Source: Panacagrimonas sp.
Lineage (GTDB): Bacteria; Pseudomonadota; Gammaproteobacteria; Nevskiales; Nevskiaceae
Reading direction: 5' to 3'
DNA: 64,000 bases
NCBI GenBank assembly: GCA_052387695.1
Contig: JBQTIX010000044.1
Location: 54,620-118,619 of the forward strand
In this document: positions 247 to 64,000 of the stretch, one piece after another
Position numbering within the stretch: the stretch's first letter is position 1
How the letters are laid out: each line of letters begins with the position of its first letter
Made by a program: the position numbers and the translations under genes
Notes under the pieces: model-generated
The model's database searches: none
The model's input: the letters and a program-made list of their open reading frames with translations, nothing else
Told to the model about the DNA's origin: nothing

Positions 247-526
247 TTGGCGCCTAGAGCTTTGAATATATTGATTTGTACCCGCCGTTATCTGGGTCGG
301 ATACGCCCTTCGATACCCCCACGCTACTTCATCGCAGAGGGCAGTTGCTCAAGGGTGAGTCGCCAGCGATTCATGTCGAAAAAGGCCGAAACGTAAAGAC
401 CCCGTCATGTTACCCGTGGCTTCGGCGATGCGATACGACTGCGCAACACGGCCCTGCATCGGGCGGGCGCTTGGAATGGTCCGTCTGAGTCGGCCCCGTT
501 CGGGCCTGCAAGGGGCCGCCCCATCC

Positions 527-811: not shown

Positions 812-1992
<1,181 letters not shown>

Positions 1993-1996
<4 letters not shown>

Positions 1997-4900
1997 ACGA
2001 CCAGCGTCCTGCTCCGGTGCACGTCCCCGGGCCCACTGCCTTGCGCGCGGTACTGGGCGGGGCATTTGCCAAGGGCATGGATTACGCGCGTCGCGGGCAG
2101 GTCCTGGGCGTGTGGTGGGAGACGCCCGCCGGACCCCTGGCGGCGCGTGTGCAGGGGACCGAGGACGAGCCCTACCAGTGCCGGATCACCTGGTCCGACC
2201 TGAAGGGGCGGCTGGAGGTGGAAGGTGAATGCAGTTGCCCGGTCGGATTCAACTGCAAGCACGTTGCAGCCGCGCTGATCCAGGCCAACATCCGGCCGCC
2301 ATCGGACCACCCGCCGGACGAGGCGGAGGTGCCGCCGCCGGTGCTGTCGATGCACGCGCCCGACCAGAGGATGGAGCCGGATTGGCAGCGACAGGTTCGT
2401 CAGCCCTTTCCCGGCGCGCCGCCGCGCGCCAGCCGCAGCCCGTTCGAACGGTGGAGGGATGCGCTCAAGTCCGCGGTCGAGCCGGGAAGATCGGCTGCGC
2501 CGCCACCGGATGTGCCGGAACGGTTGCTGTACCTGTTGTCGCCCGACCCCGACGTCCCGGTGCCGCGCGGGGTGCAGGTGCAGCCGGTGGTGGCGCGAGC
2601 GCTCAAGGGGGGCGGCTTCAGCACGCCCAAGCCGCTGAACAACGGTCCCGAAAGTCAGGCGCGCTACGTGACGGACGGGGATCGGCGTCTGCTGTCCCTG
2701 ATGCGGGCGCAGCAGTCGCCTGGCGCCGGATTTCGCGTCGAGCAGGACTGGGGCGTGGAGTTGTTGCGCAAACTGCTCGACAGCGGGCGTTGCCACTGGC
2801 TCGATGTGAACACCCCCGCGCTCAGGTCCGGACCGGAACGCCGCGGACAATTCATGTGGGACCTGGGCGCCGACGCGCACAGCCGGCCGCGGCTCGACGT
2901 GCCGAATTCGGCCGCGGTACTGCCGCTTGCGCCGCCCTGGTATGTCGATACGCGCGCGCAGCTCGCCGGTCCCGTCGAGACTGGACTACCGCCGGGAGTC
3001 TGCTGCCAGTTGTTGCTGGCGCCGCCGCTGGCGCCCGCCGATGCAACGCAACTGCTGGCCGATTGGGGAGCGGCGCTGGGTGAGTGGTCGCAGGCCGTGC
3101 CGGCCCCGCCGCAACCGCGGATCGACCGGCGCAAGGGAATCAAGCCGGTGCCGGTGTTCGAACTCTCGCGCACCTTGCTGCGCCGGTACTACGGGCCGGA
3201 AGAATGGTTCGACGTGGGACGGCTGAGTTTCGACTACGACGGCGTGCGCGCCCCGCCCGGCGGCGCCGACCAGGCCCTGATGCAGGTCGATGGCGATCGC
3301 GTGATCGAGATCACGCGATCGCCGGACCGCGAGAACAAGGCCAGTCAGAACCTGCGCTCGATCGGAATTCTTCCGATGCAGGACGACTACGGCCGGCCGA
3401 TGCCCTACTGGGTGCCCAATCCCACCGTCGGCCGCGCCGGATGGATCGACTTTCTCGCCGTGCAGGCGCCGAAGCTGCGTGAGAAGGGCTGGCGCATCGA
3501 GGTCGCGGAGGATTTCCCCTGGCGCCTGCATGAGCCGGATGACATCTGGGACGCAGACATCGAGGAGGGTCGTGACTGGTTTGACCTAGCGCTCGACGTG
3601 ATGGTCGATGGGACGCGCACGAAGCTGCTGCCCTTGCTGGTGGCGCTGCTCCACCAGACCTCGGACCGGCTCGACCTGCCCAGGCTCAAGGCCCTGTCCG
3701 ACGACGCTCCGGTCGTGATCCGCGACGAACACGGCCGCCTGATCCGCCTGCCCGCGGGGCGCATCAAGCCGATCCTCGGCACCCTGCTGGAGCTGTACGA
3801 CGAGCGACCGCTCAGCGCCGACGGCCGCCTGCGCCTGCCGCGCAACGCCGGCATGCTGCTCGACGGTCTGGGCGAACACCTGCGTTACTCCGGCGGCGGG
3901 ACCGTGCGCGAACTGGCGGAGCGGCTGCGCGGCGTCTCCGGCCTGGACCCGGTGGAGCCGCCCGCCGGTCTCCAGGGCGAACTGCGTGATTACCAGCGTC
4001 ACGGCCTGTCCTGGTTGCAGTTCCTGCGGCGCATGGACCTGGCCGGGGTGCTGGCCGACGACATGGGCCTGGGCAAGACCGTGCAGACCCTCGCGCACGT
4101 TCTGCTCGAAAAAGAACAAGGCCGGCTGGATCGGCCGGCGCTGGTGATCGCCCCGACCAGCCTGATGTTCAACTGGCGCCGCGAGGCCGGACGCTTTGCC
4201 CCCGCGCTGCGCGTGCTGGTGCTGCATGGGCTGGATCGCCGACGGGATTTCGAGCGCATCACCGAACACGATCTGGTGCTGAGCACCTATCCACTGCTGG
4301 CGCGCGACATCGAGGTACTGAAGGCGCAGCCCTGGCATCTGCTCGTGCTCGACGAGGCGCAGAACATCAAGAACGCCAAGTCCAAATCGGCACAACTGGT
4401 GGCGCAACTCGACACGCGGCATCGGCTGGCGCTCACCGGCACGCCGCTGGAGAATCATCTCGGCGAACTGTGGTCGCTGTTCCATTTCCTGATGCCGGGT
4501 TATCTGGCCGACGAGCGCGCGTTCCGCCGCCGCTTCCGCACGCCGATCGAGAAACACGGCGACGCCGAAGTCCGCACGCAACTCGCTCGCAGGATCGCGC
4601 CTTTTCTGCTGCGCCGGACCAAGCAGGAAGTCGCCTCGGAACTGCCGCCGCGCACCGAGATCATCCGCAGCGTCGCGCTCGAAGGCGCCCAGCGCGATCT
4701 GTACGAAACCGTGCGCGCAGCGATGCAGGAAAAGGTGCGGCGCGAGATCGAACAGCGCGGCCTGGCGCGTTCACAGATCGTCGTGCTCGATGCCCTGCTG
4801 AAACTGCGCCAGATCTGTTGCGATCCGCGTCTGCTGAAAATGGAATCGGCCAGGTCCGTGCGCGAATCGGCCAAGCTGGATTTGCTGATGAACCTGCTGC

Positions 4901-54212: not shown

Positions 54213-54289
54213 GCGCCTGTAGCTCAGCTGGATAGAGTACTGCCCTCCGAAGGCAGTGGTCGGACGTTCGAATCGTCTCAGGCGCACCA
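54213..54289 (+). tRNA. tRNA-Arg (anticodon CCG)
   Basis: GCGCCTGTAGCTCAGCTGGATAGAGTACTGCCCTCCGAAGGCAGTGGTCGGACGTTCGAATCGTCTCAGGCGCACCA: canonical cloverleaf, 7-bp acceptor stem, encoded CCA. Confidence 0.9.
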
Positions 54290-55435: not shown

Positions 55436-56737
55436 ATGTGGGTGAACTTAGCCGAGCAAAAGAAGAACTTTGTGACAGAACAACTGTTGGCGGCCTATAA
55501 GAAACCTGTGCCGGCGATCGCGGAAATAGCGGGTTTTGAACTGTCGGTCGACGAGGAAAGATTTCCGGCGGTCGTGCAGGAAACCTCCTATCGGGCGTTC
55601 GCCCCGGCGAACGTCGGTGTCCACCTTCCGCGGTTTCAGGCGCTGGCCGAACGTTTGGCGTCTGAGCGCCCAGCCGCCGTTCGGGCGCTGATCGAGGAGG
55701 AAATCGAATGGGCCGCCGGCATCGAATCTGGATTTGTCCCCGAACTCCGCCCCCGCTCGCTGCGGCGATATCGCGCCGCCTTATCGGTCCTAGTCGACCT
55801 GCTGGGCCAGAACTGGGTCTATCGATTCCGTGATCACCAACTGGAGATGGCGCCTCCCGACTTCACCGAGGCATCCAGTTCGCCAGAAGGTGTCGCGAAG
55901 CAGAAGCGGCAAATCAGGCTGGCAATGAAGACGGAGAGGCTGGCGCAACTGCAGCCCGAATCTGTTCGTCGATTCATTTTTGAAATGGAGGCCTCCAGAT
56001 CCCACCACGGGAAGCCCGAATGCTCAATCCTGGACTTGGTCGCCGACGGCAGCGCCTTGATCGACGACCTGACCGCCGCCAAGGCCGCTCTGGATGCTGG
56101 CAACGCAGAGCCGTTTCTAAACGTCGTTCAGCCCTATCTTCAGCTCGCGCAAGAGGATGATCGCTGCCCCGAGACCGGCCTGCGTCTGATCGATATTTGG
56201 CGTTATTTCCGCTATTTCTGGTCGCTGCCGTACTTCAGCACGCCAGGCCGAAACCTGTTCTATCTGGTCCGAGATCGGGCCCGCCCATTTCACCCTATCA
56301 TCGGCATCGCAGCTCTCGGCAACTTGATCGTACGTTTAGCAGATCGGGAGCGATTCCTGGGTTGGGACGTGGAGGGCATCCAGGCGTCTGTCGACGCCGC
56401 CCCTGATCCAGCCGAGCGGCAGACGCTTTTGGAACATCTGTATCGGCACTACTTGCGACAACTCGAAGTCGATATTGCCTCGCTGGACCCCAAGGGGATT
56501 GTGACGGCGGCCGAACTTGCGGCACCGACCATGGATCTTGTCCAGCGGCTCCTGTCAGATGCCCGCGAGAGTGCTTACCGAAGCGTCCGACGTACGTCGT
56601 CGGTCGTCGGTCGTCATAGCCTCTGGGGCTGTGTCGCGACCGATGACGCAAAGGCAGACGTCCTCGTCATCGGCGGCCGCACGTGCTTGGGCAAGCGAGA
56701 GGCGAATTGGCGTACCTTCGGTTCCGGCTTGGTATGA
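55436..56737 (+). CDS. Hypothetical protein (433 aa); central region RLIDIWRYFRYFWSLPYFSTPGRNLFYLVRDRARPFHPIIGIAALGN. Possibly DUF4338-like, but this is a recollection, not a verified match.
   Basis: Divergent from the HEPN-like gene. C-terminal ~60 codons overlap the convergent gene 56555-58216, so the true 3' end or frame is uncertain. Confidence 0.45.
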   Translation: MWVNLAEQKKNFVTEQLLAAYKKPVPAIAEIAGFELSVDEERFPAVVQETSYRAFAPANVGVHLPRFQALAERLASERPAAVRALIEEEIEWAAGIESGFVPELRPRSLRRYRAALSVLVDLLGQNWVYRFRDHQLEMAPPDFTEASSSPEGVAKQKRQIRLAMKTERLAQLQPESVRRFIFEMEASRSHHGKPECSILDLVADGSALIDDLTAAKAALDAGNAEPFLNVVQPYLQLAQEDDRCPETGLRLIDIWRYFRYFWSLPYFSTPGRNLFYLVRDRARPFHPIIGIAALGNLIVRLADRERFLGWDVEGIQASVDAAPDPAERQTLLEHLYRHYLRQLEVDIASLDPKGIVTAAELAAPTMDLVQRLLSDARESAYRSVRRTSSVVGRHSLWGCVATDDAKADVLVIGGRTCLGKREANWRTFGSGLV

Positions 56738-58216
56738 CTTCACCTCGATGCGCATCGACCACGCGCTGAAACGATCGCGCAGTTCAAAATCGTAGGTGCC
56801 CGTCCCTTGGTACCGGAGATCCGCGCCCCCGGGTTCGCCGGACTGCACGACGATCCCGGTCTCGAAGAGGGCGTCCGCGAACGCCTTTTCCGCCAGTTGT
56901 CCGATTTTTAGCAGCCGTCTGAAGTCGGCTTGCTCCTGGGCGATTGCCTCCGCATGGCTCAGTCCGGCAGCCAATGAAGTCGGGTCCGCTGCGAGTTTTC
57001 GCACCCGCGCCATGTCGACGCCTGATCGACGGATTTCCAGGTACTCGCGGCACCCCTCGCGATCGCCAGAAAGCTCCAAAAGGTCTTCGGTGCACGAGCC
57101 GGTCAGCAGCAGCAGGTGAGTGCGGCACTCGGTGGACATCAACGCCTGCGAGAGTTTGGCGTTGTCGGCCTTCCATTTCTGAAGACGAATCAGCGCGTCG
57201 CGATGGAGCTCTGCGTGGAGGTGCTTGATCTGCAGGACCGCGTCGCTCAGCTGACGCCCCAGGTCGACTAGGGTGAGCCGTCCCGGGAGGGGTAGGTCGA
57301 CGCCAAGCGGCATCAGGCTTGCCATCCAATCCATGGCGGGATCGAGTTCGTGGAGGTTCTCGAATATCTCCGTGCCGACGTCGTGCTCTTGCCCTCCGTC
57401 AAACGCACGCATTTCGTAGGCCGCTTTGAAGTCTCCTCGGCGATTAGGAATCACCTTTCGCTCGCCGATCGCGACTAGTCCGAGATGCCGAAGGCAGCGC
57501 CCGAGCCACTGCTCGGCCTGCTCTGCGGAAAGTCTGAGATGGGCTGCAAGAGCCGCGACCATGCCGGTCCGTTCGATGGTTTTGAGAATTGCTTCAAGAG
57601 CCCAACTCATGGCGGGATCGAAGTCGAACCCCTTTAGACTCGCGATGACGAAAGTCTCCCCCGGGCCGCGGGAGAGATCGTTGAGGAACGATGCGTGTCC
57701 CTGGCGACGTTCGTCGGCCGGAACGCTTGGCTCGACGAGGCCGAGGATCTTCGAGATCACGCGTGCCATCGCGTTGGCGTCCTTCCCGAACTTACCTTGC
57801 CGGATGCGCCTGTTCACGTCATCTGACGCGTCGTACAGCTTGAGCTCGTTCAGTGGTTCGGAAAGCTGCATGCCTTGATGGATCAGCAACGTCCGCCAGT
57901 CGGCGCCGACGGCGTGCAGAATGTCGAGCACAGGCTCCCCGATTGGACTCGTAGCCGATTCCTGGGCCAACTCGTGCCGGGCCTTGAGGACGCCGAAGCG
58001 ATTCGGGATCACCGCAAAACCTCGCGAACGGTCGAGCAGACCACCGAGGCTGTATCGAGACAGTAGGCCACAGAGCGCGCTGCACCATGCCAGCTTCTCT
58101 GTGTCGCCACCTGCAACTGGCATTGCGGCGAGGGTTCCGCATTTGGTCACATCGGCAAGCATATCCTCCGGTTCGAACCGCATCCCGGGCAGGCCCCAGC
58201 CGGCTTCGATGAGCAT
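56555..58216 (-). CDS. Large hypothetical protein with a DUF3883-like C-terminal domain (restriction-endonuclease-like fold)
   Basis: C-terminus …GTGTYDFELRDRFSAWSMRIEVKSYQAGTEGTPIRLSLAQARAAADDEDVCLCVI resembles the DUF3883 pattern (GYDfe…IEVK…S..E). The track ORF extends to 58528, but residues 1-58 are encoded by the tandem-repeat region, so ATG 58216 (MLIEAGWGLPG) is proposed. Confidence 0.5.
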   Translation of the reverse strand: MLIEAGWGLPGMRFEPEDMLADVTKCGTLAAMPVAGGDTEKLAWCSALCGLLSRYSLGGLLDRSRGFAVIPNRFGVLKARHELAQESATSPIGEPVLDILHAVGADWRTLLIHQGMQLSEPLNELKLYDASDDVNRRIRQGKFGKDANAMARVISKILGLVEPSVPADERRQGHASFLNDLSRGPGETFVIASLKGFDFDPAMSWALEAILKTIERTGMVAALAAHLRLSAEQAEQWLGRCLRHLGLVAIGERKVIPNRRGDFKAAYEMRAFDGGQEHDVGTEIFENLHELDPAMDWMASLMPLGVDLPLPGRLTLVDLGRQLSDAVLQIKHLHAELHRDALIRLQKWKADNAKLSQALMSTECRTHLLLLTGSCTEDLLELSGDREGCREYLEIRRSGVDMARVRKLAADPTSLAAGLSHAEAIAQEQADFRRLLKIGQLAEKAFADALFETGIVVQSGEPGGADLRYQGTGTYDFELRDRFSAWSMRIEVKSYQAGTEGTPIRLSLAQARAAADDEDVCLCVIGRDTAPEAMTTDDRRRTSDASVSTLAGI

Positions 58217-58462
58217 CCCCCATTTCGCGTTGAGCTCCGGAAGGGGAACGACGTCGAGCCCCAGGTAATCGGCGGCGAGGGCGTGAAACTCCTTCGAGGC
58301 CGGTTCTGTGCGGTTGTCCGCGTGTTTTATGCAGGGCACGGGACAGTGCTGGCATGGGTTACTCCGAATCTGGCTTAAGGGGCATTCCGAATTTGTGTGC
58401 TGGCATGAAGAGATCGAATCCGGACCCCGCAGGCCGCGGGGTCCGGACTCGTTGTCGGGCTT

Positions 58463-58830
58463 ACCGACAGCGGTCATACCGCCTCGTGGTGTACGCCACG
58501 CCATGGACTCGAAGGTGTCCGCCGCCAAGTGCGGGTCCGGATTCAGCCGGTGCCGGGAGTACCGGCGGCGGTCTTACCGCCTCGTGGTATTCGCCACGCG
58601 TAGACTCGAACGAGTCCTAAACCGCCAAGTGCGGGGTCCGGATTCAACCGGTGCCGGGGATACCGGCGGCGGTCATACCGCCTCGTGGTGTATGCCACGC
58701 CAGAGACTCGAATCGAGTCCGCTTCCGCTCGTCGCGGGCCCGGGGCTGGCCCGGGGCTGGCCCAGGGCCGGGATTGCCAGCAGCGGTTTTTCTCCGCCTC
58801 GTGGTGGTGCCACGCCTGCCCAGTGCGTAG
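58463..58830. repeat. About 3.5 tandem copies of a ~100-bp highly structured unit (period 98, 101, 116 bp), each containing several perfect hairpins (e.g. GGCGG…CCGCC, CGTGGtgtacgCCACG, ACTCgaacGAGT, CCGGattcaaCCGG)
   Basis: Read directly. An 11-bp-stem hairpin (CCGGACCCCGCaggccGCGGGGTCCGG) lies just upstream at ~58414-58440. One frame spuriously encodes AWRTPRGGMTAAGIPGTG three times. Confidence 0.7.
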
Positions 58831-59193: not shown

Positions 59194-59224
59194 AGACACC
59201 GCGGGCCTGAGCCCGCGGTGTCTC
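59194..59224 (-). terminator. Perfect 14-bp-stem hairpin GAGACACCGCGGGC-ctga-GCCCGCGGTGTCTC overlapping the rtcB stop codon (terminator-like; no U-run)
   Basis: Read directly. Confidence 0.4.
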
Positions 59225-60398
59225 ATCCCTTCACGCACATCACCTGCTTGAGCGTATGCACGACCTCCACGAGGTCGGACTGGTTGGCCATCACGGCGTC
59301 GATGTCCTTGTAGGCCCCGGGGATCTCGTCCAGCACCCCGCCGTCCTTGCGGCACTCCACGCCCTCCGTCTGGCGCTTCAGGTCCTCCACCGTGAAGTGG
59401 CGGTTGGCCTCGTTGCGCGACATCTTGCGACCCGCGCCGTGGGCACACGAGCACAGCGATTCCGGATCGCCCTTGCCGCGCACGATGTAGCTGCGCGCAC
59501 CCATGCTGCCCGGAATGATGCCGAGGTCGCCCGCGCCGGCACGGATTGCACCCTTGCGGGTCACCCACACGTCCGCGCCGTAGTGATGCTCGCGCGCCAC
59601 ATAATTGTGGTGGCAGTTGATCGCCTCCTGCGTCGGCGTGAACGGCGGCAGGTGACGCGCCAGTGCCGTGAGCACCAGCGTCATCATCGCGCGACGGTTC
59701 TCCATGGCGTAGTCCTGCGCCCAGCCCACGGCTTCCAGGTAGTCGTCGAACAGCTCGCTGCCCTCCACGAGGTAGGCGAGGTCCCGATCCGGGAGCTGGA
59801 TTAAGTGCCGCTCCATCTCCTTGCGCGCCGACTCGATGAAGAACTGCCCGATGCGGTTGCCGATGCCGCGCGAACCCGAGTGCAGCATCACCCACACGTC
59901 GTCGTTCTCATCGAGACACAGCTCGATGAAGTGATTCCCGCCGCCAAGCGATCCCATCTGCCCCTGCCAGTCGGCCTTGAGCTTGGGGTACTTTGCCTGG
60001 ATGGTCTCGAGGCCCGGCGCGATGCGCTCCAGCGCATCAACCTGCCAGCGGGCATCCTTGTGCGCGCCCATGCCCACCGGCACATCGCGCTCGATCTGGG
60101 AACGAATCGTCTTGAGGCTGTCCGGCAGCGCCGAGGCCTTCAGCGACAGGCGTACCGCATTCATGCCGCAGCCGATGTCCACTCCGACCGCGGCCGGGAT
60201 GATCGCGCCCTTCGTGGGGATCACGGAGCCCACGGTTGCGCCGATACCCAGATGCACATCGGGCATGGCCGCCACATGGTGGTGAATGAACGGCAGGCTC
60301 GCGATGTTCGCAAGCTGCGCCTGCGCGTTGTCGGCGATATCGTCGGTGTAGATCTTCACGGGCACCTTGCCCTGTGACAGAACCTTTCGGATTGGCAT
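59223..60398 (-). CDS. rtcB: RNA-splicing ligase RtcB (3'-phosphate/5'-OH RNA ligase)
   Basis: 391 aa with RtcB hallmarks: metal/GMP-binding His/Cys/Asp residues (…DIGCGMNAV…, GGGNHFIEL, MLHSGSRGIGN, HNYV…, CSCAHGAGR). Confidence 0.9.
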   Translation of the reverse strand: MPIRKVLSQGKVPVKIYTDDIADNAQAQLANIASLPFIHHHVAAMPDVHLGIGATVGSVIPTKGAIIPAAVGVDIGCGMNAVRLSLKASALPDSLKTIRSQIERDVPVGMGAHKDARWQVDALERIAPGLETIQAKYPKLKADWQGQMGSLGGGNHFIELCLDENDDVWVMLHSGSRGIGNRIGQFFIESARKEMERHLIQLPDRDLAYLVEGSELFDDYLEAVGWAQDYAMENRRAMMTLVLTALARHLPPFTPTQEAINCHHNYVAREHHYGADVWVTRKGAIRAGAGDLGIIPGSMGARSYIVRGKGDPESLCSCAHGAGRKMSRNEANRHFTVEDLKRQTEGVECRKDGGVLDEIPGAYKDIDAVMANQSDLVEVVHTLKQVMCVKG

Positions 60399-61932: not shown

Positions 61933-62005
61933 CGAAGTGGAGCGGGAGTCGAACCCGCGACAGGCGCATTACGAATACGCTGCTCTACCCTCTGAGCTAT
62001 CCAGT
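61933..62005 (-). tRNA. tRNA-Thr(CGT)-like gene, probably a degenerate or remnant copy
   Basis: Minus strand reads CACTGGA-TA-GCTCAGAGGGTAGAGC-A-GCGTATTCGTAATGCGC-CTGTC-GCGGGTTCGACTCCCGC-TCCACTT-C. D, anticodon (CGT) and T arms are canonical, but the acceptor stem has 2 mismatches and no CCA. Confidence 0.45.
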
Positions 62006-62218
62006 GGTGAAAGGGCATCAGCCCTTCCGAGGCATCGGCCGTCGTGCGTCCACGGCATACGCACCGGCAATGCCGGGCGCACCGGACGGGTGGGACATCT
62101 CCCGAACCCGCGCCGCTGTGAACCGCCGTACAGATCGATGCCGATTGGCGTCTCGTGGGAAACGCCAATTCATGGGGCGGGCTGCGACATCAACTCCGCC
62201 GAATCTCGAACTCCTTCG

Positions 62219-62317
62219 CGAACGGAAAACAAAACGCCCCGGGAGGCAGGCCTTCCGGGGCGTTCGCGAATCTATCGGAAGGTCGGAGTACCGACCTTCC
62301 TGTTTGTCGTCAGGTCA
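62219..62317. terminator. Back-to-back terminator hairpins: CGCCCCGGgaggcaggccttCCGGGGCG with AAAACAAAA upstream (intrinsic terminator for the minus strand), and GGAAGGTCGGagtaCCGACCTTCC followed by TGTTTGT (plus strand)
   Basis: Read directly; GC-rich stems with flanking T/A-runs. Confidence 0.5.
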
Positions 62318-62597
62318 GGTCAGTCGATGGCAAGCATCGGCTACATTCGTCGGCAGGCTGGGCGCCCGCAAGCCGAACGACGCCGTGTCCAGGCATTCAT
62401 GCCCGGATGTGCGTGATGGTTGATGGGTGGACCTGAGAATCATCGAAGGTTGATTGGAAAAACTGCACCGACCGGTGCGAAGGGCGCGCACTCTACGCTC
62501 GGTGATTGTGAGATTCAACAAAGATTCCAAATAAATTGTGCAAGCGATCACGAACGTCCGGATTGCGCTTTGTGTTTTCGTTGCATCATTTCAGCGC

Positions 62598-62627
62598 TTG
62601 ATTTCGTTACTGTAGCACGCTACAGTA
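62598..62627 (+). promoter_or_regulatory. Sigma70-like promoter (TTGATT -35, 17-bp spacer, TACAGT -10) overlapped by a near-consensus LexA SOS box TACTGTAGCACGCTACAGTA (62608-62627)
   Basis: The box matches the E. coli-type consensus TACTGTA-N6-TACAGTA (CTGT-N8-ACAG) at all conserved positions and is embedded in the spacer/-10, the classic SOS promoter layout. Sits in a locally low-GC region. Confidence 0.6.
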
Positions 62628-62631
62628 ACGA

Positions 62632-62919
62632 CGCTGAACATCAAGGTCGAAAGACCGCTTTCACAGGATCACGAATTTCAATGTCACGCCATTCCACCCC
62701 ATCGCTTCAAGCGACGACCCGAGAAATCGGGACGGGTGGACTGTGCCCGTGGCATTCCTATTTGTTTGCGGACTTTGGTCTGCCCACGAATAAGGATTGT
62801 CTGCACATGCGGTAACCGCGACTCCACACCTTCGGGTGGCAGGTCGCAAACCTGCCAACCAGAACTGGTGAAGAGGGATTCCAGAATCACGGAACCCCCG
62901 GCAGGCCGAAAGGTTTGCC
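62632..62919 (+). ncRNA. Predicted SOS-inducible ~290-nt transcript (putative sRNA or small-protein mRNA). Contains hairpins and one 44-codon ORF (62681-62815, MSRHSTPSLQATTREIGTGGLCPWHSYLFADFGLPTNKDCLHMR). Ends in a strong intrinsic terminator CCCCCGGCA…TGCCGGGGG-TTTTT (62885-62919).
   Basis: Defined only by promoter/LexA box upstream and terminator downstream. No homology claimed. Confidence 0.35.
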
Positions 62920-63410
62920 GGGGGTTTTTCGTTGTCCCCGCGCAGAGATTGTCGGAGAGATCGAACGTGGGCCGGAGAAGTTCGGCGCCGCGCTGCTCTC
63001 TCCGGATCGATGCGAATCCCAATGAACCGGTGGACCAGCCGCCACCGGAATGCTCTCTAACAATCTGGACTGTCGTAAGCGGTGGGTCCCAGCGCGGGAC
63101 TGACTCAATGTCAGTCCCGCGTAAACCCACCGCGGCGCATGCCGGGCCTCAATGGACGAAGAACGCTCGACGGCATGGGAAGCCGTGTGCTCGGGCGGAT
63201 GAATGCCCGCGCCCGGATGCCTCCGGCGCGCGGCTGATGATCGTGCGGGCGCCCGGTGCCCGACTTCTACATGAAGCCATCGAAACTCAATCACCCGGGC
63301 GTGAGGTCGCGACCACCAGACGACCGGGACGCCACGGGGGTAGGACCGTGGACGGGGTGGGCGCGCGTGCCTCGTTGTTCGAGCTGCAGCGCTTGATGCA
63401 CTTCAGCAAC

Positions 63411-63484
63411 GCAAGGCTGGCCTAGCGGTCGGGCTCCTGCCTTCCAAGCAGACGAGACGGGTTCGACTCCCGTGCCTTGCTCCA
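63411..63484 (+). tRNA. tRNA-Gly (anticodon TCC)
   Basis: GCAAGGC…CTGCcttCCAaGCAG…ACGGGTTCGACTCCCGTGCCTTGCTCCA; anticodon loop CTTCCAA with U33/A37; discriminator U + CCA. Confidence 0.8.
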
Positions 63485-63488
63485 ATTC

Positions 63489-63576
63489 GGATGGTTCGCA
63501 TAGCGGCCATTGCACCTGGCTGTAAACCAGGCGACCCCTCGGGTCTTCCAAGGTTCGAGTCCTTGACCATCCACCA
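63489..63576 (+). tRNA. tRNA-Tyr (anticodon GTA), long variable arm
   Basis: GGATGGT…CTGGCTGTAAACCAG + extra arm GCGACCCCTCGGGTC + T-arm GGTTCGAGTCC + CCATCCACCA. Confidence 0.85.
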
Positions 63577-63605
63577 GTACGCGTTCTTCAGTATTCAATT
63601 TTTAT

Positions 63606-63681
63606 GGTGGCCGTAGCTCAACGGCAGAGCCCCTGGTTGTGAGCCAGGAGGTCGCGGGGTCAGCACCCGTCGGTCACCCCA
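63606..63681 (+). tRNA. tRNA-His (anticodon GTG) with G-1 / C73
   Basis: G-GTGGCCG-TA-GCTCAACGGCAGAGC-C-CCTGGTTGTGAGCCAGG…CGGTCAC-C-CCA. The extra 5' G pairing with discriminator C is the His identity element. T-loop reads GTCAGCA (non-canonical), so confidence is reduced. Confidence 0.7.
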
Positions 63682-63686
63682 ACATC

Positions 63687-63829
63687 GGGTCGTTCGTCCA
63701 AGGGCAGGACCCCGGACTCTTTGATTCGGCGAAGCCGGATCAAAGCAAAACCGTGCTCTGTGTTGTTGAAGCGGCTGCACCGCTTCAACAATGCGGCCGA
63801 TCTCGGTTCAAGTCCGAGGCGACCCACCA
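63687..63829 (+). ncRNA. 143-nt tRNA-like gene with a ~72-nt insertion in the variable region: canonical acceptor stem (GGGTCGT/GCGACCC), D-arm, T-arm (CTCGGTTCAAGTCCGAG) and CCA, but an 8-nt anticodon-like loop
   Basis: Read directly. The extra region contains perfect hairpins (CTTTGAT…ATCAAAG; TTGTTGAAGCGGctgcaCCGCTTCAACAA). Position inside a tRNA operon. Confidence 0.45.
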
Positions 63830-63832
63830 AAT

Positions 63833-63917
63833 GCCGACGTGGTGAAACGGAATACACGCGACGCTCAGAACGTCGTGCCCTCAGGGCTTGCGAGTTCAAG
63901 TCTCGCCGTCGGTACCA
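63833..63917 (+). tRNA. tRNA-Leu (anticodon CAG), long variable arm
   Basis: GCCGACG…CGACGctCAGaaCGTCG + extra arm TGCCCTCAGGGCTTG + T-arm GCGAGTTCAAGTCTCGC + CGTCGGTACCA. Confidence 0.85.
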
Positions 63918-63922
63918 ACTCC

Positions 63923-64000
63923 ACCCCCGTAGCTCAGCGGAACCAGAGCGTCCGCTTACGAAGCGGAAAGTCGGAGGTTCAAATCCTCCCGGGGGTACCA
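63923..64000 (+). tRNA. tRNA-Arg (anticodon ACG)
   Basis: ACCCCCG-TA-GCTCAGCGGAACCAGAGC-G-TCCGCTTACGAAGCGGA-AAGTC-GGAGGTTCAAATCCTCC-CGGGGGT-A-CCA. Confidence 0.85.

Follow-up and report, generated by a model that had tools for sequence, protein, structure and literature searches.

Several kinds of extra sequence have been described in and around transfer RNA (tRNA) genes. Group I introns, as in cyanobacterial tRNA-Leu(UAA) and tRNA-fMet, Azoarcus tRNA-Ile and Agrobacterium tRNA-Arg, sit in the anticodon loop beside the anticodon, pair the last exon bases with the insert in a P1-like hairpin, measure about 200 nucleotides (nt) or more in total, end in G and form a U.G pair where the 5' splice site lies. 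Archaeal and eukaryal tRNA introns, which depend on EndA or TSEN and on RtcB, are shorter than 100 nt, lie by the anticodon at position 37/38 and hold the anticodon paired. Class II tRNAs have a variable arm of approximately 10-25 nt between positions 44 and 48, together with a 7-nt anticodon loop. Phage T4 species 1 RNA (rnaC, 139 nt), a stable RNA that belongs to no formal family and has no known function, comes from a tRNA cluster, has its ends paired beside a canonical T arm and contains long internal hairpins, one of them directly before the T arm. Lastly, long tRNA arrays such as the Anabaena trn operon (PMC8421152) and irregular tRNA polycistrons (PMC5389517) are dense tRNA operons in accessory regions that contain divergent tRNAs, are patchily distributed among relatives and often lie near rtcB or HNH genes. 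Here we describe an element of 143 nt at positions 63687-63829 (plus strand) of a 64-kb stretch of DNA from Panacagrimonas sp. (contig JBQTIX010000044.1; hereafter the window), which is a tRNA-Lys(CUU) gene split right after its anticodon by a 68-nt sequence that belongs to no known intron class.

Results

Anatomy and identity of the element

An original prediction, made from the sequence alone, had singled out the element as a 143-nt tRNA-like gene with acceptor stem, D arm, T arm and CCA inside a tRNA operon, and we confirm both its coordinates and this anatomy. It stands flush between tRNA-His and tRNA-Leu, 5 nt downstream of the tRNA-His CCA and 3 nt before tRNA-Leu, and has the layout GGGUCGU-UC-GUCC-AAGGGCA-GGAC-C-CCGGA-CUCUUUGA-UUCGG-(72 nt)-CUCGG-UUCAAGU-CCGAG-GCGACCC-A-CCA. 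The acceptor stem (GGGUCGU/GCGACCC) was predicted to be a perfect one of seven base pairs (bp); it does have seven, of which six are Watson-Crick and one is U7.G66, and it is followed by A73 and an encoded CCA. The D arm (GUCC-AAGGGCA-GGAC) and the T arm (CUCGG-UUCAAGU-CCGAG) are regular, and the nucleotides of the tertiary pairs are in place (U8, A14, A15:U48, G18 G19 and the T loop UUCAAGU). Between the two arms an anticodon-like arm can be read, with a 5-bp stem (CCGGA/UUCGG, one G.U) and the 8-nt loop CUCUUUGA, from which 72 nt lead to the T stem.

Default ARAGORN does not call the element, and the Rfam tRNA model RF00005 has no match over 63687-63829 even at E<=10, which rules out a canonical bacterial tRNA in the sense of a contiguous cloverleaf of 70-95 nt that reaches at least 29 bits by covariance model. 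When introns are allowed, ARAGORN at its default threshold calls tRNA-Lys(ctt) i(36,68) at exactly 63687-63829; the same search made one call in total in 20 random 64-kb Markov sequences. Of the checks proposed with the original prediction, ARAGORN thus returns a standard tRNA-Lys in intron mode and nothing in its default and transfer-messenger RNA (tmRNA) modes, while the Rfam covariance-model search finds no tRNA at the element.

Deletion of 63722-63789 leaves a 75-nt canonical tRNA-Lys(CUU) with an acceptor stem of 7 bp, a D arm of 4 bp, the anticodon arm CCGGA-CUCUUAA-UGCGG, a 5-nt variable loop (CCGAU), the T arm and ACCA. Apart from one mismatch in the anticodon stem, G30.G40, it is free of defects, U48 is able to pair with A15, and its ARAGORN score is 112.1 (105-124 for the neighbouring tRNAs of the array). 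If instead the 72 nt are collapsed as a variable arm, the form that remains scores 109.4, has the 8-nt loop and is labelled tRNA-???(cttt). The features of tRNA-Lys(CUU) are all found in the spliced form, namely the acceptor with A73, the loop CUCUUAA, which is that of every aligned tRNA-Lys(CUU), a class I variable loop, and the D- and T-arm features.

Sequence comparison points to the same identity. The 25-nt sequence GGTTCAAGTCCGAGGCGACCCACCA, comprising the T arm, the 3' acceptor strand, A73 and CCA, recurs without a change in two tRNA arrays from soil metagenomes (L005 and L006), in tRNA-Lys(UUU) genes that also have the 5' acceptor strand GGGTCGT; GGGUCGU...CGACCC-A-CCA is presumably the acceptor stem of Escherichia coli tRNA-Lys as well. 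The D arm GTCCAAGGGCAGGAC recurs in the tRNA-Gln of a Catellatospora array. In BLAST searches the weak phage matches of the intact element are annotated tRNA-Lys too. With the spliced sequence as query, annotated phage tRNA-Lys genes align from positions 23-29 to 67-75, across the junction 35/36, and the tRNA-Lys(ctt) of Streptomyces phage Genie2 is one match that spans it, whereas the alignments of the intact element and of the collapsed variable-arm control cover the T arm and acceptor only. In view of both the ARAGORN intron call and these junction-spanning alignments, we assign the insertion to the 36/37 junction of the tRNA. Interruption of a tRNA was among the options of the original prediction and is supported, although at another site: 68 nt after position 36 in place of a 72-nt variable region.

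Fold of the full-length RNA and composition of the insert

The element folds at -73.3 kcal/mol (z = -6.6), and none of 200 shuffled sequences folds as well. The minimum free energy (MFE) and centroid folds retain the acceptor stem and the T arm, and in both the proposed anticodon stem is replaced by a hairpin, H1 (Table 1). The 5' strand of H1 (63719-63730) consists of the anticodon-like loop and the 3' strand of the anticodon-like stem, so that the 5' junction lies within a helix and the anticodon C-U-U is paired with A-A-G of the insert. H1 and the proposed anticodon stem are mutually exclusive because both use this strand. In the partition function the pairs of H1 have probabilities of 0.8-1.0 versus approximately 0 for the cloverleaf anticodon stem, and a cloverleaf with that stem is 12.7-17.2 kcal/mol less stable than the hairpin fold. 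The 8-nt anticodon-like loop is therefore present in the sequence without its stem being expected to form, and the 72 nt, which had been described as perfectly paired hairpins, are not self-contained, since H1 draws its 5' strand from the loop and stem that precede them.

The second hairpin, H2, has core probabilities above 0.99, and its perfect Watson-Crick core of 12 bp was also located independently. Its 3' strand takes in A37 through the variable loop, with the 3' junction inside the helix, and ends two bases before the T stem. With the anticodon tied up in H1, and the 3' half of its stem together with the variable loop in H2, the unprocessed RNA is predicted to be unable to present an anticodon or to decode.

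The insert resembles sequence of its own surroundings. It starts with UGAUUCGGC, a diverged duplicate of tRNA positions 37-44 (AAUGCGGC) whose last 8 nt match at six of eight positions, and an imperfect 8-nt direct repeat (GAUUCGGC/AAUGCGGC, 6/8) brackets it; this duplicate supplied the alternative 3' stem strand perceived in the original prediction. The duplicate is followed by GAA and then by GCCGGAUCAAAG, in which the anticodon and positions 37-44 are repeated in inverted orientation, and H1 results. The linker CAAAAC then joins H1 to H2, the 5' strand of which is the complement of the tRNA from A37 to the variable loop. Such an order, with a diverged duplicate ahead of the anticodon loop and stem in inverted form, is typical of local duplication or template switching, and the most likely origin of the insertion is thus an event at the DNA level, with local duplication and inverted copying.

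Table 1. Positions of the element, its parts, its surroundings and the sequences compared with it (window coordinates unless another source is named).
Feature	Position	Strand	Remarks
5' part of tRNA-Lys(CUU)	63687-63721	+	acceptor GGGUCGU, U8 C9, D arm, C26, CCGGA, C32 U33, anticodon CUU
68-nt insertion UGAUUCGGCGAAGCCGGAUCAAAGCAAAACCGUGCUCUGUGUUGUUGAAGCGGCUGCACCGCUUCAAC	63722-63789	+	between tRNA positions 36 and 37; ARAGORN i(36,68)
3' part of tRNA-Lys(CUU)	63790-63829	+	A37 A38, UGCGG, variable loop CCGAU, T arm, GCGACCC, A73, CCA
Hairpin H1	63719-63745	+	12 bp, CUUUGAUUCGGC/GCCGGAUCAAAG, one U.G, GAA loop; MFE and centroid
Hairpin H2	63752-63799	+	15 consecutive pairs (63760-63794, two G.U), CUGCA loop, plus 5 pairs
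tRNA array with the element	63411-64000	+	six genes in 590 nt; ARAGORN and Rfam
tRNA-Gly(TCC)	63411-63484	+	ARAGORN, Rfam
tRNA-Tyr(GTA)	63489-63576	+	ARAGORN, Rfam
tRNA-His(GTG)	63607-63681	+	ARAGORN, Rfam
tRNA-Leu(CAG)	63833-63917	+	ARAGORN, Rfam
tRNA-Arg(ACG)	63923-64000	+	truncated by window end; ARAGORN, Rfam
RtcB RNA ligase gene	59223-60398	-	Pfam PF01139, E = 7e-134
tRNA-Arg(CCG)	54213-54289		bounds, with RtcB, the stretch with the defence-type genes
DruA-like (DUF4338) gene	55436-56737	+	PADLOC 1.3e-59
TmtA-like gene	56555-58528	-	3.9e-27
tRNA-Thr(CGT)	61934-62006	-	between Band_7 and the hairpin-rich region
Perfect hairpins upstream of the array	62233-62264, 62277-62300, 62604-62631, 62887-62925, 63080-63133		U run after 62887-62925
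Long tRNA-like gene (L014)	3109-3241	+	Pseudomonas sp. FeN3W plasmid CP136011.1 (megaplasmid); 133 nt, 2 nt before tRNA-Ala
Irregular tRNA-like gene (L006)	1333-1417	-	homologue of that in L005; not called by ARAGORN
Irregular tRNA-like gene (L005)	368-446	+	homologue of that in L006; not called by ARAGORN
Hairpin-rich sequence (L007)	1618-1746	-	IMG/VR UViG_3300036859_000186; 129 nt

Comparison with introns, tRNA-like RNAs and mobile elements

With group I introns the element shares an insert in the anticodon loop beside the anticodon, and last exon bases that pair with the insert in a P1-like hairpin. The differences are those of size and of splice sites: the catalytic core of a group I intron (P3-P9) takes approximately 100 nt (PMC4033280) whereas the insert has 68 nt, and it ends in C with U36 paired to A. 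No match to Intron_gpI was obtained at E<=10. With archaeal and eukaryal introns it shares a length below 100 nt, a place by the anticodon, a paired anticodon and a nearby gene for RtcB. In contrast to these, the host is bacterial, the position is 36/37, both junctions are buried in helices, and no splicing endonuclease is known or was seen here in the 64 kb examined. A bulge-helix-bulge motif, taken as two 3-nt bulges that hold the splice sites with a 4-bp helix between them, is absent from the best and suboptimal folds calculated with the mature tRNA body enforced, and a manual check of the register gave one of the four central pairs. More generally, no intron or ribozyme model of Rfam matches the element at E<=10. 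Removal of the insert hence gives a standard tRNA call but reveals no recognised intron class.

In the manner of a class II variable arm, H2 emerges 2 nt before the T stem. However, H2 and its linker are 3-5 times longer than natural variable arms in class II tRNAs and allo-tRNAs, homology puts the extra sequence in the anticodon loop, and a class II reading needs the 8-nt loop in addition to the 72 nt; the original prediction was right that this region lies beyond any class II variable arm, being several times longer. In outline the element resembles T4 species 1 RNA, with which it shares a place in a tRNA cluster, a length of about 140 nt, paired ends beside the canonical T arm and the hairpins. 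The two have no sequence similarity in BLAST. A clean acceptor stem of 7 bp, a D arm and an encoded CCA are all missing from rnaC, which, unlike the element, yields no canonical tRNA when a segment is removed.

Other classes were considered in turn. A tmRNA is contradicted by a negative ARAGORN tmRNA search (default threshold), by G-C at 3:70, where a tmRNA has G3:U70, and by the lack of an Rfam tmRNA match; YrlA/Y RNAs and known ribozymes were rejected through Rfam. The scar of an integrase attachment (att) site was dismissed on inspection, as the duplicated segment is merely 8 nt, and so was an IS200/IS605-type insertion at TTGAT, whose flanks restore no tRNA. Of a repeated or mobile element, such as a miniature inverted-repeat transposable element or a repetitive extragenic palindrome, no sign was seen in the sequences searched other than the imperfect direct repeat around the insert: neither the window nor 19 other fetched loci contain a further copy of the insert, and it has no match in the phage and plasmid collections, in which BLAST of the array and of the element alone returned only neighbouring-tRNA or T-arm matches.

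Search for homologues and other irregular tRNA-like genes

Exact-pattern scans of IMG/VR with the 3' 25-mer, the 5' 24-mer, an internal 25-mer of the insert and the 3' ends of tRNA-Leu and tRNA-His gave no match. GTDB species genomes and JGI metagenomes were scanned with one pattern each. The single match in GTDB genomes (D arm, gap and T loop) is false, as it spans two adjacent Catellatospora tRNAs, and the JGI matches are the ordinary tRNA-Lys(UUU) genes of L005 and L006, which are informative for the identity of the element and provide no homologue of the insert. A match on a Euzebya plasmid is an ordinary tRNA-Thr. A gapped IMG/VR pattern for long tRNA-Lys-like genes led to a further sequence (L007 in Table 1), which has the tRNA-Lys-type acceptor GGGUCGU/ACGACCC and ACCA, only three of five T-stem pairs and no other tRNA nearby. 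It was not counted as a homologue; it could represent the 3' fragment of a tRNA, as in an attP site, or else a tRNA-like gene in decay.

We also examined eight other arrays (approximately 170 tRNAs) using the intron mode of ARAGORN and a custom finder for long genes, and obtained one further case, L014, on a Pseudomonas megaplasmid. This gene, which belongs to an unrelated array, has a 7-bp acceptor stem, canonical D and T arms, and a hairpin whose 7-nt loop has no U33. Its extra region of some 60 nt includes UGAGCUA, which repeats the D-arm sequence GUAGCUCA of the gene in inverted form. In intron mode ARAGORN labels the gene tRNA-Arg(ccg) i(43,47), a forced solution, and no reduction gives a clean tRNA. 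Judged by their sequences, L014 and the element appear to share a mutational theme, the inverted copying of a part of the tRNA itself.

The arrays L005 and L006 each contain in addition an irregular tRNA-like gene with the acceptor GGGCGCG/CGCGCCU and ACCA and the anticodon-like loop CUUCUAA (UCU). A D arm cannot be recognised in either copy, and the T arm is preceded by some 22 additional nt. Where one T stem has GCGAG/CUCGC the other has GAGAG/CUCUC, a compensatory change that suggests maintenance of this irregular gene.

tRNA array and genomic setting

The array runs into the end of the window, so its total size lies beyond it. Its genes are separated, in order, by 4, 30, 5, 3 and 5 nt, and CCA is encoded in all those whose 3' end could be read (Gly, Tyr, His, the element and Arg), as in the long tRNA arrays described above. 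From these the locus differs in that one clean, hairpin-forming 68-nt insertion lies exactly after an anticodon while the remaining tRNA is intact; in the literature on such arrays that we examined no case of this kind is described. Frequent insertions, duplications and deletions, with pseudogenes or undetectable tRNAs inside, have been reported for long arrays, and 3 of the 26 genes of the Anabaena operon have no detectable tRNA (PMC8421152).

Among the intact tRNAs of the array, tRNA-His has the lowest Rfam (47.7 bits) and ARAGORN scores and a non-canonical T loop, GUCAGCA, with G54 and G58 in place of the usual U54 and A58. Its closest matches are tRNA-His genes of plasmid-borne arrays in Pseudomonas, Mycolicibacterium and Pseudarthrobacter.

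The RtcB gene lies 3.3 kb from the element and serves here as context only: it bears on the possibility of splicing, and any link to the element is putative. An exact look-up found no record of its product, whose best match has 92% identity and whose named matches are in Nevskiaceae and Panacagrimonas, as fits a host among Nevskiaceae-like gammaproteobacteria. At six RtcB loci fetched from relatives (80-92% identity) the tRNA array is absent, and the Band_7-RtcB pair occurs in relatives (loci L001 and L013) with no adjoining array. An ordinary tRNA at the corresponding slot, which the original prediction had considered, is hence not found there, the fetched relatives having no array at that locus. 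Since these loci are without it, the array can be regarded as accessory; it was probably acquired horizontally. The RtcB-Band_7 synteny, by the same comparison, appears ancestral, and because it exists in relatives that have no array, the closeness of RtcB to the array is probably incidental.

Further features of the surroundings are noted for completeness. Between tRNA-Arg(CCG) and RtcB lie DruA-like and TmtA-like genes (55436-58528), a stretch that looks like a small defence-type island beside RtcB, Band_7 and the tRNA array. The tRNA-Thr(CGT) gene has two mismatches at the top of the acceptor stem in the Rfam alignment and is possibly a damaged gene or a remnant that marks where the inserted region begins or ends. 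About 1.4 kb upstream of the array (62007-63410) is free of any open reading frame recognisable by Pfam and rich in perfect hairpins: of the 12 in the window with at least 10 bp, it contains three, and the element contains another. No promoter with a sigma-70 consensus turned up in this upstream region. On the minus strand, 63740-63799 reads as an extended H2 followed directly by G-UUUUGCUUUGAU, which may resemble an intrinsic terminator for antisense transcription toward Band_7 and RtcB; coincidence is possible.

Discussion

We judge the chances slightly better than even that the element is an insertionally inactivated tRNA-Lys(CUU) gene, that is, a pseudogene of an accessory array that still makes a tRNA-shaped RNA. 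It would be co-transcribed with its neighbours in the array, cleaved by RNase P at G1 and trimmed at its encoded CCA end by the usual enzymes; such end processing would be expected because these enzymes read the acceptor/T-arm half, which is intact. The product would be a stable tRNA-like RNA of 143 nt with its anticodon locked in a helix, which would not decode and would probably not be charged by lysyl-tRNA synthetase. In keeping with this, G40 breaks the mature stem (G30.G40) yet forms a U.G pair in H2, which counts against selection on the spliced tRNA and would be expected of a mature tRNA that is no longer selected. Several points weigh on the other side. The interpretation relies on a single sequence; all helices of the tRNA part and of the insert are intact (7/7, 4/4 and 5/5, with uninterrupted runs of 12 and 15 pairs in the hairpins); and where the inverted repeats are imperfect, at three places, the pair is in each case G.U, with pairing kept. 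Intact helices with G.U departures fit a very young event, but also selection on structure. Moreover, a clean tRNA after exact removal of 68 nt, together with pairing between anticodon and insert, is what a real intron would lead one to expect too.

An alternative that we consider unlikely, though less so than those that follow, is that the 143-nt product is a selected, non-decoding RNA that works as a decoy or regulator in the manner of T4 rnaC, with the acceptor/T-arm half recruiting tRNA-processing and tRNA-binding factors and three hairpins replacing the anticodon arm; a tRNA-derived regulatory RNA, as the original prediction also suggested, may be of this type. The intact helices and the fold z-score would be accounted for, as would G40, which favours H2 over the mature anticodon stem, and rnaC has the same layout. 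All three imperfections in the 27 hairpin pairs are G.U, for which a rough estimate gives p ~0.02-0.04 under neutrality, and the authors of the work on cyanobacterial arrays have left non-canonical roles of array tRNAs open (PMC8421152). Against it, an RNA family under selection would be expected to recur, and no homologue emerged from the phage and plasmid BLAST searches or from the exact-pattern scans of IMG/VR, JGI metagenomes and GTDB species genomes; long genes are rare, with one other in about 170 array tRNAs; the insert resembles local sequence duplicated and inverted; and no target or partner is evident.

Splicing is an improbable alternative. Here the insert would be a new type of short bacterial intron, cut by an endonuclease at 36|37 and at the insert end to leave a 2',3'-cyclic phosphate and a 5'-OH, and RtcB would join the exons, maybe only under stress, if RtcB and array tRNAs are then induced. 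Its strongest form, a protein-dependent intron with hairpin-embedded junctions, a putative endonuclease, sealing by RtcB and conditional production of tRNA-Lys(CUU), seems to us more doubtful still. Exact removal beside the anticodon restores a canonical tRNA, and both the length and the anticodon-insert pairing recall archaeal and eukaryal pre-tRNAs. An RtcB gene is at hand, and the long tRNA arrays of cyanobacteria often have rtcB beside them and are induced together with it (PMC8421152). Yet no low-energy fold contains a bulge-helix-bulge and both junctions are inside continuous helices, the position is not 37/38, the mature anticodon stem would contain the G.G mismatch, there is no other example in the roughly 170 array tRNAs, and the presence of RtcB-Band_7 without the array in relatives makes the linkage probably coincidental.

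That the element is a decoding tRNA with a long arm, in which CCGGA/UUCGG would be the anticodon stem, the 8-nt loop would present a four-base anticodon (CUUU, for AAAG) and all 72 nt would belong to the variable arm, is scarcely credible: stem and loop exist in the sequence, ARAGORN accepts the collapsed form, and work on engineered tRNAs reports hairpin tags tolerated in the long variable arm (PMC7590224), but the 12-bp helix occupies the 3' strand and loop, leaving the stem a probability of about 0, the collapsed form fails to align through the anticodon arm of real tRNAs, the arm would be oversized, and nothing but chance would account for AAUGCGG-CCGAU being spaced exactly as required from the T stem.

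For annotation the locus calls for caution, as standard finders miss the gene and the intron mode labels it an intron-bearing tRNA. If the product were spliced, it would be the first bacterial tRNA known to be spliced by enzymes, not by itself; bacterial tRNA introns could then no longer be regarded as solely self-splicing, and a bacterial RtcB would have a natural splicing substrate. If the RNA is selected, bacteria would have an equivalent of T4 species 1 RNA, itself still unexplained. If, as we favour, the gene has been inactivated by insertion, the element offers a tidy example of gene decay in mobile tRNA arrays, in which a short self-complementary insertion masks the anticodon of its own gene and spares the half that directs processing, so that a tRNA-shaped RNA is probably still made.

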